From positions 66,726 to 130,725 of the forward strand of contig CAZOHN010000001.1 of NCBI GenBank assembly GCA_964579325.1: 64,000 nt of DNA, read 5' to 3'. Numbering within the stretch: the stretch's first letter is position 1; the number at the start of each line of letters is the position of its first letter. The position numbers and the translations under genes are program-made. This document shows positions 40,689 to 47,709 of this stretch, one piece after another. Origin of the DNA: an uncultured Rhodobacterales bacterium (GTDB taxonomy: Bacteria; Pseudomonadota; Alphaproteobacteria; Rhodobacterales; Rhodobacteraceae). The notes below the pieces were generated by a model. The model saw only the letters and a program-made list of their open reading frames with translations, made no database searches and was not told the origin of the DNA.

Positions 40689-43901
<3,213 letters not shown>

Positions 43902-43949
43902 ACGGTGTTCCTTCCCCGAAACCGTTCTGCATGAAGAACGTTACCTCGG

Positions 43950-44441
43950 TCACTTTATTCCCAGCTTCTGCGCAACGGCGATCCGCGCCCGCGCCAGGCG
44001 GCTCATCACCGTGCCGATCGGAATACCCAGCACTTCGGCGGTCTCCTTGTAGGTGAGTTCCTCAACACAAACGAGAAGGATGACTTCCCGCTGGTCCACC
44101 GGCAAACTGGCGATCGCCGCCTCGGCTTCTGACAGTGCGATCCGATTCATCGCGATATCCTCGCCATCGACAGTTGCCGCTTCCGGCATATCGTCGATGT
44201 CAACGGCCACGCCCCGGACGGCACCGCGCCGGGTATGGTCGATCCAGGCGTTGCGCAGGATGCGCAGCAGCCACGCATCGAGCCGCGTCGCGGGATCGAA
44301 CCGGTCGCGGGCGGCGAGGGCGCGCTCGGCCGTGATCTGGACGAGGTCGTCCGCGAGGTCGGATCGTCGGCTGAGAGAGAGGGCGAACCGCCGGAGATTG
44401 GGCAGTAGCGCGATCAGCTCTTCTATGAAGCGATCGGACAT
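43950..44441 (-). CDS. ECF-type RNA polymerase sigma factor
   Basis: Region 2 (DLVQITAERAL...RLDAWLLRILRNAWIDHTR) and region 4 (EVILLVCVEELTYKETAEVLGIPIGTVMSRLARAR). ATG at 44441; the track's GTG at 44453 is the alternative. Confidence 0.88.
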   Translation of the reverse strand: MSDRFIEELIALLPNLRRFALSLSRRSDLADDLVQITAERALAARDRFDPATRLDAWLLRILRNAWIDHTRRGAVRGVAVDIDDMPEAATVDGEDIAMNRIALSEAEAAIASLPVDQREVILLVCVEELTYKETAEVLGIPIGTVMSRLARARIAVAQKLGIK

Positions 44442-44475: not shown

Positions 44476-44502
44476 CGGGAATATTCCGCGTCACCAGACG
44501 TA
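44476..44502 (+). promoter_or_regulatory. ECF-type promoter candidate P1 upstream of the S8 peptidase gene
   Basis: CGGGAATA-N15-CGTA. The -35 is embedded in the palindrome GGAATATTCC (44478-44487), and the GTG start lies 62 nt downstream. Same motif as P2 and P3. Confidence 0.55.
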
Positions 44503-44564
44503 TACCCCGAGCCTCCCCGGTCAATCCGGGGTTGATCGATACTGGACGAAGGAGGACAAGACCA

Positions 44565-45959
44565 GTGGCTGTGCGAACCTGTCTCGTGGCTTTCGGCATC
44601 CTGTCCTTGCTTGCCGTCGCTTCGCTGCCTAACGAAAGCCCCTTCGCCTTCGCCGGGTCGGCTCAGGCCGATGACGACGACGGTGGTGACGGCGGAGGCG
44701 CAGACAACGACGACGACAACGGCGGCGTTGGGGGAGGTGCATCCAACGACGACGACGATGATGATGGCCCGGGAGCTTCCGGCCGAGGTTCGCGCGATCG
44801 TGCCGTCTCCCCAAACAGGCGGACCGCCGCGCCACCACGGGCGACGGAGCCCGTGCAGCGACTCCTGTTCGCGCGCAACGAGATCGTCGCGCTCGACCTC
44901 GATGACGGTAGCCTGGCAGAACTCATCGCGCAGGGCTTCACGTTGATCGAAGAACGCTCGGTACCGGCCATCGGCCAGACCGCGCGGCGACTTTCAGTTC
45001 CGCCTGACCAGACGCTCGAAGCCGCGCGGGAGACCGTGCGCGGCTTCGCACCCGGCGGCGGAGCAGATTTCAACCACTTCTATCGCTCGGAAGGTGACGA
45101 ATCCTCGCTGTGCGACGGTCCCCACTGCGCCGCGCGAAGCCTGATCGGCTGGCCCGAGCAGGCCCTCGCGCCCTTGACCTGCGGCGTGAACGTCGCGATC
45201 GGTGTGATCGACACCGGAATCAACGCTGACCACGAAGCCCTTGCATCGGTCAAGATCGAGGTGCATCGGATCGTGGAGGACGAAACCCTCGATCGCTCCC
45301 GTGCGATCCATGGCACCGCAGTTGCTGCCCTTCTCGTGGGCGCTGCCGGCAGCCGGACGCCCGGGCTACTGCCCGAGGCGCAACTTGTCGCTGTCGACGC
45401 CTTCCACCGCACTGGCGGCGATGAGCGGGCGGATGTCTTTGCCCTCGTAGAGGCCATGGACTTCCTCGTCGCGCGCGGGACGCGGGTCCTCAACCTGAGC
45501 CTTGCCGGCCCCGCCAACGCCGTTCTCGAAGAAGCGATCGCGAGGCTCCACGACGCCGGCATCGTTGTGGTCGCTGCCGCCGGAAACGGTGGGCCAAGGG
45601 CGGAACCGGCCTTTCCGGCGGCCTATTCGACAGTCATTGCAGTGACTGCGGTGGATAGCTCGGGTGCGATCTATCGGCGCGCTGGCCGGGGCGACCACAT
45701 CGATATCGCTGCGCCGGGTGTCGAGGTCTGGACGGCCGCCTCGATCCGCGGGGCGCGTCCGAAGTCGGGCACGTCGTTCGCGGCCCCCTTCGTTTCGGCC
45801 GCCGCCGCACTTCTTCTGGCTGCCGAGCCGGACCTGACCGCCGAAGACGTCCGCCACCGCCTCAAATCCGCAGCCCGCGACCTGGGCGATGCCGGGGAGG
45901 ATCCGGTGTTCGGCGCTGGCCTGTTGCAGGCCTCCGGCTTCTGCGTATCGACAGATTGA
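44565..45959 (+). CDS. Secreted S8 (subtilisin-family) serine peptidase with an N-terminal Asp/Gly/Asn low-complexity insert
   Basis: GTG at 44565 lies 8 nt after GGAGGA. Signal peptide. Catalytic D (AIGVIDTGIN), H (IHGTAVAALLVG) and S (SGTSFAAPFVSAAAALL). D-rich tract ADDDDGGDGGGADNDDDNGGVGGGASNDDDDDDG. Confidence 0.85.
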   Translation: MAVRTCLVAFGILSLLAVASLPNESPFAFAGSAQADDDDGGDGGGADNDDDNGGVGGGASNDDDDDDGPGASGRGSRDRAVSPNRRTAAPPRATEPVQRLLFARNEIVALDLDDGSLAELIAQGFTLIEERSVPAIGQTARRLSVPPDQTLEAARETVRGFAPGGGADFNHFYRSEGDESSLCDGPHCAARSLIGWPEQALAPLTCGVNVAIGVIDTGINADHEALASVKIEVHRIVEDETLDRSRAIHGTAVAALLVGAAGSRTPGLLPEAQLVAVDAFHRTGGDERADVFALVEAMDFLVARGTRVLNLSLAGPANAVLEEAIARLHDAGIVVVAAAGNGGPRAEPAFPAAYSTVIAVTAVDSSGAIYRRAGRGDHIDIAAPGVEVWTAASIRGARPKSGTSFAAPFVSAAAALLLAAEPDLTAEDVRHRLKSAARDLGDAGEDPVFGAGLLQASGFCVSTD

Positions 45960-45980: not shown

Positions 45981-46691
45981 ATGGGATTCCTTCGAAAGAC
46001 CTCGCAGACCATCCGCTTCACCTGCGAGCATCGCGACGAGAATGTGATAGCCGAGCCTGTGCCCGCCAAGAGCTACCTGCCTGACTGGTTCCGCAAGCTT
46101 CCTGCAGTTGACGAGACCAAGCTTTCGACCGGCGATACGGGCCTGACCGTCAAGCGCTGCATGCCCTTTCTCGACGCCATGAGCACGGGCTGGCTCATCC
46201 CGCTGGCGGCCACGGTGCGGCTCGAGATCACAAAGGACGGTCGCCATGTCAGCGCAGGGTGGGACTTCGATAGAACGATGGTGTCGAACCACGGGATGCA
46301 CCAGGTGAAGGGGCATGCCTGGGGCGACCGACCACCCATGAAGTTCCACAATTACTGGACGATTACCACGCCTCCAGGCTGGAGTTGTCTGTTCATCAAT
46401 CCGCTGAACCGGCCCAACGGGCTGTTCGAGATCGTGGCGGGCGTGGTCGATACCGATACCTACGCCTCGCCGATCCACTTCCCCTTCTTTGCAACGGGCC
46501 CGGACGGTCTGCATGTGATCGAGAAGGGGTCTCCCATCGTGCAGGTCATCCCGTTCCGGCGTGACAGCGCCGAGATCGTCGCAGAGATCAGGGCAGAGAC
46601 CGGGGAGGAGGCAGCGCTGCGGGCGAAGATCCTGCGTCAGACCCAGGCTGCTCCCGGATGGTATCGCATCGAGGCGCGCGCGAAGCGCTGA
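45981..46691 (+). CDS. Conserved hypothetical protein (possibly DUF6065-like; recollection only)
   Basis: 236 aa, starting 21 nt after the S8 stop on the same strand. No signal peptide. Motifs KRCMPFLDAMSTGW and AGVVDTDTY. I cannot assign a fold. Confidence 0.55.
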   Translation: MGFLRKTSQTIRFTCEHRDENVIAEPVPAKSYLPDWFRKLPAVDETKLSTGDTGLTVKRCMPFLDAMSTGWLIPLAATVRLEITKDGRHVSAGWDFDRTMVSNHGMHQVKGHAWGDRPPMKFHNYWTITTPPGWSCLFINPLNRPNGLFEIVAGVVDTDTYASPIHFPFFATGPDGLHVIEKGSPIVQVIPFRRDSAEIVAEIRAETGEEAALRAKILRQTQAAPGWYRIEARAKR

Positions 46692-46787: not shown

Positions 46788-46815
46788 ACAAGAACGCCGA
46801 CCCCGAGGGTCGGCG
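46788..46815 (-). terminator. Rho-independent terminator after mini-gene 1
   Basis: Minus strand reads CGCCGACCC-TCG-GGGTCGGCG followed by TTCTTGTCT. Confidence 0.6.
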
Positions 46816-46840: not shown

Positions 46841-47200
46841 TCAATCGTCGTCGTCGTTGGAGTTCGACGAGGAGTTGCTTGAGGAATTGGAAGAGCTGTT
46901 GCTGCTCGAATTCGAGGACGAGTTGCTCGAAGAGTTCAACGAGCCGTTCGAGTTGCTGTTCGACGACGAATTGCTGCTCGAATTGCGGTTCGAGTTCGAG
47001 CGGCCATTGTCGTCGTCATCATCGTCCCGGCTGCTGCGGTAGCTGCGCGAGTCGAAGCTTGTCCGGCGCTTGTCGTTCGAGACCGACTGCGGCTGGAAAA
47101 GCTGCTTCAGCCAGCGCGGCGCGTCGTCCGCAGCGGCGGGAGCCGAAAGCGTGGTCGTTGACACCAGGGCGGTGATCAGGAGGGTCGATATGCGCTTCAT
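46841..47200 (-). CDS. Small secreted protein 1: signal peptide, PRWLKQL motif, poly-Asp, (SSN)n tail ending DDDD
   Basis: ATG at 47200 gives MKRISTLLITALVSTTTLSAPAAADDAPRWLKQLFQP...RSYRSSRDDDDDDNGRSNSN...(SSNSSSN)n...NDDDD (119 aa). It has its own promoter motif and terminator. Confidence 0.7.
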   Translation of the reverse strand: MKRISTLLITALVSTTTLSAPAAADDAPRWLKQLFQPQSVSNDKRRTSFDSRSYRSSRDDDDDDNGRSNSNRNSSSNSSSNSNSNGSLNSSSNSSSNSSSNSSSNSSSNSSSNSNDDDD

Positions 47201-47248
47201 GTCGGGGCCTACTCTCTTTGACCAGCAGTCCATCTGCTGCCATGGAGA

Positions 47249-47275
47249 AACGCGCGAGCAGTGTTCTTATTCCCG
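47249..47275 (-). promoter_or_regulatory. ECF-type promoter candidate P2 upstream of mini-gene 1
   Basis: Minus strand reads CGGGAATA-N15-CGTT, 48 nt upstream of the ATG at 47200. Confidence 0.55.
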
Positions 47276-47320
47276 GAAAGCCGCTCGGAAGTGTTTGCGT
47301 GCCATCGCGCCGCCAGCCGC

Positions 47321-47355
47321 AAACGAAGAACGCCGGTCTTGACGGACCGGCGTTC
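47321..47355 (-). terminator. Rho-independent terminator after mini-gene 2
   Basis: Minus strand reads GAACGCCGGTC-CGTCAA-GACCGGCGTTC followed by TTCGTTT. Confidence 0.65.
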
Positions 47356-47380
47356 CCAGGAGAATTCGGACGGGCAGCGA

Positions 47381-47635
47381 TCAATCGTCGTCGTCGTCAC
47401 GGTCACCGCGATCATCATCATCGTCGTCACGGCCCCGGCCCCGACCATCGTCGTCGTCATCATCGTCTCGACCGTAGCGATAACTGCGCATCTCGCTGCG
47501 AGAGCCGCGCTGGCCGCTAAGTGCGGGCTGCAGGAGTTGCTTGATCCAGCGCGGCATGTCGTCGGCTGCGGCGGGGGCCGAAAGCGTTGTCGTGGACACC
47601 AGTGCGGTGATCAGGAGCGTGGAGATCCGTTTCAT
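47381..47635 (-). CDS. Small secreted protein 2: same signal peptide and PRWIKQL motif, poly-Asp/Arg-Gly tail
   Basis: 84 aa: MKRISTLLITALVSTTTLSAPAAADDMPRWIKQLLQP...RSYRYGRDDDDDDDGRGRGRDDDDDDRGDRDDDDD. The first 26 residues are identical to protein 1. Confidence 0.7.
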   Translation of the reverse strand: MKRISTLLITALVSTTTLSAPAAADDMPRWIKQLLQPALSGQRGSRSEMRSYRYGRDDDDDDDGRGRGRDDDDDDRGDRDDDDD

Positions 47636-47682: not shown

Positions 47683-47709
47683 AACGGACGGTGCCGGCCT
47701 TTATTCCCG
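47683..47709 (-). promoter_or_regulatory. ECF-type promoter candidate P3 upstream of mini-gene 2
   Basis: Minus strand reads CGGGAATA-N15-CGTT, 47 nt upstream of the ATG at 47635 and just downstream of the fmt stop. Confidence 0.55.

Follow-up and report, generated by a model that had tools for sequence, protein, structure and literature searches.

Tandem mini-genes with predicted signal peptides in an ECF26-type locus of a Rhodobacterales bacterium, and a serine/asparagine-repeat family encoded beside DUF6065

Introduction

Among described systems, the rpoE6 locus of Sinorhizobium meliloti comes closest to the stretch of DNA analysed here, a window of 64,000 nucleotides from an uncultured Rhodobacterales bacterium (contig CAZOHN010000001.1, assembly GCA_964579325.1) in which two tandem mini-genes, A and B, lie beside genes for an extracytoplasmic function (ECF) sigma factor, an anti-sigma factor, a subtilisin-like (S8) serine protease and a DUF6065 protein. 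In S. meliloti, Lang et al. described the rpoE6-ecfR6 pair, whose sigma factor belongs to group ECF26, as divergent from the serine protease gene SMa0142 (2018, PMC6180224). By rapid amplification of cDNA 5' ends (5'-RACE) they mapped RpoE6-dependent promoters for ecfR6 (GGAATAACACAGGCGACCGGACGTT, inside rpoE6), SMa0142 (GGAATAGACCGACGACTCAGCCGTT) and SMa0148 (GGAATAGAAGCCTCTCCGTTCCGTT), and the ECF26 consensus reads -35 GGAATA and -10 GT (PMC6180224). RpoE6 induces SMa0142 and SMa0148 2^4.7 to 2^6.5-fold, with a log fold change (logFC) of 6.5 for SMa0148 (PMC6180224), and activates an ECF26 reporter about 2^8-fold in S. meliloti (PMC10880074). RpoE1 and RpoE4, which also belong to ECF26, answer to sulfite and control sulfite oxidase (PMC6180224).

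The window locus is like the RpoE6 system in its GGAATA/CGT promoter, its single-pass anti-sigma factor, the divergent S8 gene and the internal promoter before the anti-sigma gene. Unlike the S. meliloti locus it is chromosomal, lies next to gyrB and fmt, and contains two mini-genes; the gene order is gyrB, anti-sigma (-), ECF sigma (-), S8 (+), DUF6065 (+), A (-), B (-), fmt (-). As judged from identity to RpoE6 and EcfR6 (Table 1), the genome appears to encode a cognate ECF26 sigma factor with a single-pass anti-sigma factor, and both genes are orthologous to those of the RpoE6 system. The regulatory frame is one already known; the effector family is undescribed. We consider it probable that A and B are effectors of a compact ECF26/RpoE6-like regulon, exported, disordered and monocistronic, with A a member of a serine/asparagine (S/N)-repeat family and B a paralogue of this lineage. 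The locus is more interesting than a pair of odd open reading frames (ORFs) and less exotic than the 'runaway repeats' that an earlier note, made from the letters of the window, had seen in it.

ECF26-type promoters of the mini-genes

The pattern GGAATAA-N14-CGTT has three exact matches in the 64 kb window, before A, before B and before the anti-sigma gene, against 0.03 expected. With up to one mismatch allowed there are four matches, all at this locus, the extra site lying before the S8 gene. Both mini-genes carry -35 GGAATA and -10 CGT(T) at ECF spacing upstream, and the window motif equals the mapped promoters of ecfR6, SMa0142 and SMa0148. A scan for sigma-70 promoters found no sigma-70-like one. 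The hairpins that follow A and B are both GC-rich and each is succeeded by a U-rich tract; an Rfam scan of the A/B region returned no RNA family. The earlier note had taken A and B for tandem paralogues from a duplication, each with its own promoter and its own terminator, and the motifs and hairpins located for each gene agree with this. What it missed is that the promoters are of the ECF-sigma type and common to the adjacent sigma/anti-sigma/S8/DUF6065 cluster.

As a detail of the divergent sigma-S8 intergenic region, the palindrome GGAATATTCC (44478-44487) includes the -35 of the S8 promoter and could act as -35 in both directions. On the plus strand CGTA is reached at the correct spacing; the minus-strand continuation reaches GTT only.

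Genes A and B encode proteins with a common N-terminal half

Translation of the ORFs confirms the description and coordinates given earlier, namely an identical 26-residue leader, a PRWxKQL and an RSYR block, and divergence thereafter. The first 26 residues of A and B are identical (MKRISTLLITALVSTTTLSAPAAADD), and the blocks PRW[LI]KQL[FL]QP and RSYR-xx-RDDDDDD are common to both before the sequences part. The predicted leaders consist of MKR, a hydrophobic core of 15-17 residues and PAAA followed by DD (an AxA site). In gene A, whose mechanical ORF extends to 47233, the signal peptide is succeeded by a short amphipathic helix, PRWLKQLF, and then by RSYR..RDDDDDD; the gene is convergent to the DUF6065 gene across a gap of 150 nt. 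The mature parts are very hydrophilic, with a grand average of hydropathicity of -1.9 for A and -2.2 for B, and Pfam and NCBIfam scans of both proteins gave noise only.

Gene callers predicted both ORFs on four independent metagenome contigs identical to the window, and gene A was called as a 119-aa gene on three Logan contigs. Both genes also occur, at an unchanged 119 and 84 aa, on a metagenome contig of the Joint Genome Institute (JGI) with about 83% DNA identity to the window (L007), where the orthologue of gene B is P0007. Between window and L007, gene A shows 35 synonymous-codon differences versus 11 amino-acid changes and gene B 16 versus 7; of all six frames, the coding frame has the minimal ratio of non-synonymous to synonymous rates (dN/dS). 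A and B are protein-coding genes under purifying selection. Over the 26 leader codons the two paralogues differ by 11 synonymous and no non-synonymous substitutions, so the identity of the leaders is kept by selection on the peptide. The same 11 synonymous differences exclude recent duplication or gene conversion as its cause. The earlier note had named a lack of homologues with the leader and the PRWxKQL block as a sign of spurious ORFs; homologues sharing the leader and the helix block exist.

Table 1. Positions of the mini-genes, their parts and the associated locus features in the 64,000-nucleotide window.
Feature	Position	Strand	Remarks
Gene A	46841..47200	minus	119-aa precursor counted from MKRIS
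Gene A, predicted signal peptide	47129-47200	minus	residues 1-24
Gene A, S/N repeat tail	46856-47008	minus	residues 65-115 (~50 residues)
Gene A, C-terminal DDDD	46844-46855	minus	
Gene B	47381..47635	minus	84-aa precursor; leader and helix as in gene A
Gene B, tail	47384-47470	minus	Asp runs separated by RG; 30-nt period x2.4; without S/N repeat
ECF26/RpoE6-type promoter, gene A	47249..47273	minus	GGAATAAGAACACTGCTCGCGCGTT; end 48 nt before ATG
ECF26/RpoE6-type promoter, gene B	47683..47707	minus	GGAATAAAGGCCGGCACCGTCCGTT; end 47 nt before ATG
ECF26-type promoter, anti-sigma gene	43937..43961	minus	overlaps 3' end of sigma gene, as in S. meliloti rpoE6-ecfR6
ECF26-type promoter, S8-DUF6065 operon	44478..44502	plus	GGAATATTCCGCGTCACCAGACGTA; one mismatch to pattern
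Terminator-like hairpin after gene A	46795..46815	minus	9-bp GC stem, then UUCUUGUCUG; between convergent A and DUF6065
Terminator-like hairpin after gene B	47318..47357	minus	13-bp stem, then CGUUUG; z-score -3.0
ECF sigma factor	43950..44441	minus	163 aa; 57% identical to S. meliloti RpoE6 (group ECF26)
Single-pass anti-sigma factor	43161..43901	minus	246 aa; 36% identical to EcfR6 over full length
Secreted S8 (subtilisin-like) serine protease	44532..45959	plus	predicted signal peptide, then poly-Asp/Gly segment; orthologue of S. meliloti SMa0142
DUF6065 protein	45981..46691	plus	236 aa; without signal peptide; starts 21 nt after S8 gene

Gene A belongs to an S/N-repeat family linked to DUF6065

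To survey the family, one genome per species was scanned with a DUF6065 alignment; 206 loci were returned and the best 80 analysed, from taxa that include Rhizobiaceae, Phyllobacteriaceae, Paracoccaceae, Stappiaceae, Devosia and Salinarimonas. An S/N-repeat ORF lies directly beside DUF6065, convergent or co-directional, in 76 of the 80 loci, and at the other four the contig breaks off about 60-310 nt past DUF6065, which leaves 76 of 76 informative loci. A heuristic test predicts a signal-peptide start in 70 of these 76 ORFs. The promoter motif stands upstream of 63 of the 70 members, at a median distance of 47 nt between motif end and start codon. The proteins are 102-171 aa long (median 123 aa), S and N make up 66% of the mature part, and 48 of 70 end in DD(D). 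In about 50 of the 80 loci the sigma, anti-sigma and S8 genes lie no more than 8 kb away; at other loci the DUF6065/S-N pair occurs by itself with its promoter retained, apart from all three genes in about 27 of the 80. The N-terminal regions fall into at least three types, and the window genes have the commonest, SP-ADD..P..R[FW]L..

Gene A has 16 Asn-led units, where the chain is defined by ten or more (S1-3N)n units that form most of the mature protein, and S and N account for 57% of its mature protein; it lies next to DUF6065, and A and B both begin with a signal-peptide-like leader. On the strength of signal peptide, (S1-3N)n chain and DUF6065 adjacency, gene A is the local member of the family. 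Homologues in the databases (P0002-P0006, P0010-P0014) show the same layout of signal peptide, short helix, R.Y.R with an Asp run, (S1-3N)n and a DDD end, and the two distant ones on contigs of inspectable length (L005, L006) both have the motif of the window genes upstream. The tails had been read in the earlier note as runaway divergence; the S/N tail is, however, the conserved and defining part of a large family, and B is the derived form.

The S/N-repeat family is undescribed and widespread in Alphaproteobacteria, and protein databases largely lack it. Of five sense proteins (window A and those of Rm1021, R. leguminosarum, A. tumefaciens and Aminobacter), not one is found among about 15 billion database proteins; in the same database DUF6065 forms 1631 clusters. 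An exhaustive search of 1.84 billion representatives with a hidden Markov model (HMM) profile of seven sequences gave 17 matches, about 11 of them genuine, and this low count may come from missing gene calls, from the composition filter of HMMER, or from both. With A as query, tblastn gave no match among plasmids; its low-complexity filter masks the tail. N-glycosylation sequons were considered as the meaning of the repeat and dropped: only 69% of the Asn residues stand in an N-x-S/T context, and (NS)n variants exist.

Two side observations concern the promoters. Across those of 70 S/N genes (L012-L091 and the window), conservation runs past the -10 as far as the start of the transcript (CGTTnCTCCc..GCAGCC), and the -35 is preceded by a T-rich stretch; the extended conservation could reflect shared ancestry or an element of the 5' untranslated region or discriminator. 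In related genomes, GGAATA-N15-CGTT also stands before genes for glycerate kinase, an SLC13/DASS permease, RTX-type calcium-binding proteins and a type I secretion ABC protein (L027, L028, L033, L038-L040, L046, L050, L056, L058, L067, L068, L073, L079, L081, L083, L085, L091; L008).

The S/N gene of S. meliloti is annotated on the wrong strand

SMa0148 encodes DUF6065, and the S/N gene of S. meliloti sits between ecfR6 and SMa0148 on the strand opposite to the annotation. Its product has a signal peptide followed by (NSSS)10-12, and GGAATAG-N14-CGTT lies upstream at 80312-80336. In this context, Schlueter et al. reported an automatic 'new ORF', SMa_ORF_1, at pSymA 80386-80772 on the plus strand, together with a transcription start site (TSS), SMa_TSS0230, at 80344 plus (2013, PMC3616915 supplement). 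The coordinates of SMa_ORF_1 are exactly those of the S/N-repeat ORF, and the TSS falls 8 nt after the motif. SMa_ORF_1 differs from gene A in an unrelated N-terminal part (..DGEIIVAGN..) and in a basic C-terminus, SDRSYRPGKLWHTGR, in place of DDDD; it also differs from the window in being single-copy and in its more perfect DNA repeat, which varies between strains.

What is annotated in its place is a 174-aa antisense ORF, 'hypothetical protein SMa0146' (AAK64735.1), which with its relatives falls into clusters of 73 and 42 members. Antisense calls were made by the Prokaryotic Genome Annotation Pipeline (PGAP) in S. meliloti LMB1 and Rhizobium sp. CC-CFT758 and by JGI in L007. SMa0146 and similar 'hypothetical proteins' of PGAP and the Integrated Microbial Genomes (IMG) system look like antisense artefacts. 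Searching the literature for SMa0146 retrieved only Lang et al., and for the repeat string nothing. The finding exposes a systematic annotation error, to which annotation-based proteomics, transposon sequencing (Tn-seq) and transcriptomes owe their blindness to the S/N gene. Antisense calls of the ELELEE or IVVVII type opposite S/N and poly-Asp genes were noted in L011 (pSymA 80295-80819), L009 (3853-4245), L092 (4929-5198 and 640-999) and L007 (10594-10917).

Gene B is a derived paralogue

The first 55 or so residues of gene B are common with gene A, while the S/N chain is absent; S and N make up 7% of mature B, which by that measure is not a family member. Since the N-terminal half is kept and the chain is absent, B is a derived paralogue of A. 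It was found only in the window lineage (window and L007), and a word-indexed protein search with gene B matched only B itself. The synonymous distance (dS) between the N-terminal halves of A and B, 0.75-0.85, exceeds that of the window-L007 orthologues, 0.36-0.55, which places the duplication before the window-L007 split.

Small secreted poly-Asp look-alikes stand beside S8 on a Rhizobium plasmid, in a Rhizobiales isolate and on an Agrobacterium pAt plasmid, behind the same promoter, and in two Devosia genomes a protein of this type directly follows the S/N-repeat gene. The Rhizobium, Agrobacterium and Devosia loci thus make an S/N-type and a poly-Asp-type protein a recurring pair in the regulon. 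Like gene B, these proteins (e.g. WP_162993126.1) have about 85-95 aa, a signal peptide, R-x-Y-R, several D5-10 runs, a poly-D end and the promoter type. Their N-terminal half differs and homology is not establishable through low complexity, whereas the N-terminal 55 residues of gene B clearly correspond to those of gene A.

A proposed role within the regulon

For this organism we infer sigma dependence, export, disorder in vivo and a biochemical role of A and B from the features described above. The membrane anti-sigma factor would release the sigma factor, and RNA polymerase would then start at four GGAATA-N15-CGTT promoters, those of the anti-sigma gene, the S8-DUF6065 operon, A and B. Transcription of each mini-gene would be monocistronic and stop at the hairpin that follows the gene. 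The products would be exported by way of the Sec-type signal peptide, cleaved and left unstructured, the mature proteins presenting an amphipathic helix, a basic/aromatic RSYR patch and an Asp run, to which A would add a long (S1-3N)n chain, neutral and polar, with DDDD at its end, and B further blocks of Asp and Arg-Gly. Such a polymer might be made, modified or turned over with the help of cytoplasmic DUF6065 and the co-induced secreted S8 protease. With low confidence, we suggest that it serves as a hydrophilic, sericin- or hydrophilin-like polymer of the envelope or the extracellular space, whose acidic blocks bind cations and which is handled with DUF6065 and S8.

Several well-studied proteins offer parallels. 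Hydrophilins and late embryogenesis abundant (LEA) proteins, silk sericin and the periplasmic Asr of E. coli are, as A and B are predicted to be, small or repetitive, very hydrophilic, disordered and stress-regulated. Sericin is rich in Ser, Asn and Asp but eukaryotic; hydrophilins are Gly-rich and cytoplasmic; Asr, though secreted and disordered, is rich in Lys, Ala and His. To our knowledge none of these is related in sequence to A or B, and none has a strict (S1-3N)n chain. The serine-rich repeat glycoproteins of Gram-positive bacteria and phosphophoryn, with its (DSS)n, have long Ser-dominated repeats that function through O-glycosylation or phosphorylation, and by analogy DUF6065 might modify the S/N chain. 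The serine-rich repeat proteins, however, exceed 1000 residues, are LPXTG-anchored and are exported by SecA2/Y2, phosphophoryn is a vertebrate protein, and the window locus, unlike these systems, has no glycosyltransferase or kinase gene.

That the S/N-repeat gene is always found beside DUF6065 suggests that the chain carries the function of the family and acts together with DUF6065. A bolder proposal, which we regard as speculative and on the whole doubtful, is that S/N protein and DUF6065 form an unrecognised two-gene module of Alphaproteobacteria, in which the highly conserved DUF6065 as enzyme or pilot would modify or handle the chain before Sec export and S8 would trim the product, a secreted polymer of a kind new to bacteria that resembles a modified mucin, sericin or phosphophoryn. 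Such a module would have long been invisible because gene finders call an antisense 'ELELEE' ORF or nothing. With these genes the RpoE6-type ECF26 regulon gains testable content, its core output being DUF6065 and a secreted S/N-repeat protein, often accompanied by a secreted protease and sometimes by poly-Asp proteins. The A/B pair amounts to a natural experiment on the role of the chain, one copy having it and the other not.

A number of observations weigh against the reading of A and B as exported, disordered effectors of the regulon or against the role proposed for them. None of the stresses tried in S. meliloti induced the targets of RpoE6, and the deletion had no phenotype (PMC6180224). 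The array of Lang et al. probed only antisense SMa0146, with a logFC of 2.3 (PMC6180224), which could be read-through from SMa0148 (logFC 6.5). About 10% of the 70 family members have no promoter match. The resemblance of the leaders to signal peptides, which the earlier note had pointed out, held on inspection of the n-, h- and c-regions of A and B, a call made by eye only. Its expectation of disordered mature proteins is consistent with the AlphaFold2 model of A, with a predicted local distance difference test score (pLDDT) of 50, a predicted template modelling score (pTM) of 0.15, a helix at residues 29-34 only and no fold, although from an alignment of seven sequences such low confidence is a weak sign of disorder. 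The AlphaFold2 model of DUF6065 is poor (pLDDT 56.5, pTM 0.62, from a low-diversity alignment of 45 sequences), and its best Foldseek matches in the PDB are non-significant and dUTPase-like (E ~0.07). Fold and sequence searches gave no enzymatic link of DUF6065 to Ser or Asn. Taken as a whole, moreover, the family has a median net charge of +1 and is not acidic, which rules out cation binding as the conserved function of the S/N chain.

Alternative explanations

That A and B are chance ORFs in a low-complexity spacer, or that the true gene lies on the opposite strand as annotated by PGAP, seems scarcely credible to us. A and B have no Pfam or NCBIfam match, an opposite-strand 'hypothetical protein' is annotated in S. 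meliloti (as SMa0146) and in Rhizobium sp. CC-CFT758, and JGI called a 107-aa antisense ORF in L007. The sense frame, however, comes in about 70 species with signal peptide, Shine-Dalgarno sequence, terminator and a conserved promoter at fixed distance, and it has the lowest dN/dS, whereas the antisense 'ELELEE' ORF lacks a conserved start, spans only 61 aa in the window and is an unavoidable by-product of TCG/TCC/AGC/AAC codons. Gene B is conserved though it has no S/N tail and no comparable antisense ORF. In S. meliloti the TSS maps to the sense strand; the 5'-RACE primers for SMa0146 were aimed at the annotated antisense strand, and Table 1 of Lang et al. lists no TSS for SMa0146. The DNA repeats themselves might instead be the point, with tri- and nona-nucleotide units kept as a contingency locus for the yield of repeat-number variants; the earlier note, too, took the tails for a slippage substrate and advised a look for such polymorphism. 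For this idea speak the 12 NSSS units of Rm1021 versus 10 in LMB1, the exactly repeated 24-nt unit of S. meliloti with its 42-nt exact direct repeat in Rm1021, and the spread in length of antisense-ORF cluster members (129-174 aa) and of the family. In the window, though, the eight identical NSSS units of gene A are encoded by seven different 12-mers (mean identity 58%), the longest exact direct repeat of the tail is 14 nt, Tandem Repeats Finder detects a 2.2-copy 12-mer only (score 40), and gene lengths are the same in L007, the 83%-identical relative, and in the four metagenome contigs. All observed variation is in frame, in multiples of 12 or 24 nt (24-nt differences between the S. meliloti strains), with no on/off switching. 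The combination of near-perfect repeat and length or frame polymorphism that marks a contingency locus is thus absent from the window and partly present in S. meliloti, and we hold that explanation to be highly unlikely; nor is the slippage idea supported for the window. The codon-scrambled repeat is a clean case of selection keeping a protein repeat while avoiding DNA instability.

Other alternatives accept the proteins and assign them a different function. Identical leaders with divergent C-terminal parts in tandem small genes recall precursors of ribosomally synthesized and post-translationally modified peptides (RiPPs), the leader acting as recognition sequence, the tails as cores, and S8 and DUF6065 as maturation enzymes. 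The strong constraint on the leader (0 non-synonymous vs 11 synonymous) fits, as do a subtilisin-like protease and a highly conserved DUF6065 as neighbours and a weak, sub-threshold PatA/PatG domain match of S8 (72 bits vs a cut-off of 421). We nevertheless find this improbable: the leader has classic Sec features, the S8 protease itself has a predicted signal peptide, the 'cores' would span 60-95 low-complexity residues, no cyclodehydratase, LanM/LanB, radical-SAM or ABC-peptidase gene lies nearby, and the family pattern is the reverse, with N-termini of at least three unrelated types and a conserved S/N tail. Unlikely, too, is a specific role in Ca2+ or mineral control, in which the Asp runs, in the manner of poly-aspartate or phosphophoryn, would chelate Ca2+ or keep minerals from nucleating at the envelope, or would provide the co-induced subtilase and RTX proteins with Ca2+. 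It would suit the Asp runs of B, the DD(D) ends of the family, the poly-Asp/Gly segment behind the signal peptide of the S8 proteases of these loci, the RTX-type Ca-binding proteins behind the same promoter and type I secretion system ABC-transporter genes alongside at some loci, the 'calcium-binding protein' of the Paracoccus denitrificans locus, and the separate small secreted poly-Asp proteins that recur in Rhizobium, Agrobacterium and Devosia. Against it stand the neutral S/N chain as the conserved element and the basic tail in which Sinorhizobium-type members end. In the same vein, the description of the mature proteins as extremely acidic in the earlier note suits B (net charge -10, 35% Asp, three D5-7 runs) but neither A, mildly acidic at -4, nor the family with its median of +1. 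Very improbable, finally, is a signalling role in which the products or fragments released by S8 would act back on the anti-sigma factor through its periplasmic domain, comparable to the activation of DegS by outer membrane protein C-termini in the E. coli sigma-E system. A sigma/anti-sigma pair and a secreted serine protease are encoded with the mini-genes and predicted to be regulated with them, and most members keep a C-terminal DDD-COOH; yet the DUF6065/S-N pair is separated from sigma, anti-sigma and S8 in about 27 of 80 loci, L007 has lost the anti-sigma gene with both mini-genes still under purifying selection, and a peptide signal has no need of an S/N chain of 50-100 residues.

DUF6065 and other features of the locus

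The DUF6065 gene is probably co-transcribed with the S8 gene. The protein is 64-75% identical across families, with many invariant His, Asp, Cys and Trp residues, and the closest relatives among GTDB representatives, a metagenome-assembled Rhodobacter genome and Pseudotabrizicola, are 75% identical. Searches against PDB sequences, by single sequence or by profile, gave no match, and a literature search found no paper naming DUF6065. Despite 64-75% identity to about 200 alphaproteobacterial proteins, the window protein scores only 36.6 bits against Pfam PF19541; the sigma-linked DUF6065 proteins apparently form a divergent subfamily within that family.

A poly-Asp/Gly(/Ser) low-complexity segment right behind the signal peptide was seen in every inspected S8 protease of this locus type (window 44620-44790, residues ~30-85; L009, L010, L033, L093, L016-L021, L083), with a composition akin to the acidic blocks of the mini-proteins. 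In P. denitrificans the genes for the calcium-binding protein, glycerate kinase and SLC13 permease adjoin those for sigma factor, anti-sigma factor and S8. This segment and the extra promoter targets hint at a cation or envelope theme. On Aminobacter pAM01 (L010, 7404-7428) an ECF26-type motif follows S8 and precedes genes for DUF4956, a VTC-like polyphosphate polymerase domain protein and a phytase-like esterase, which may be a lineage-specific extension of the regulon.

In L007 an 840-bp gap (window 43162-44004 vs L007 13639-13641) takes out the entire anti-sigma gene together with the 3' end of the sigma gene. Despite this loss L007 retains both mini-genes, S8 and DUF6065; its sigma factor might be constitutively active. 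The gyrB, dnaA and dnaN calls are fragmented in L007, so that its assembly quality is uncertain. The sole RNA gene in the window found by Rfam and ARAGORN is a tRNA-Pro (CGG) at 61418-61494 on the minus strand.

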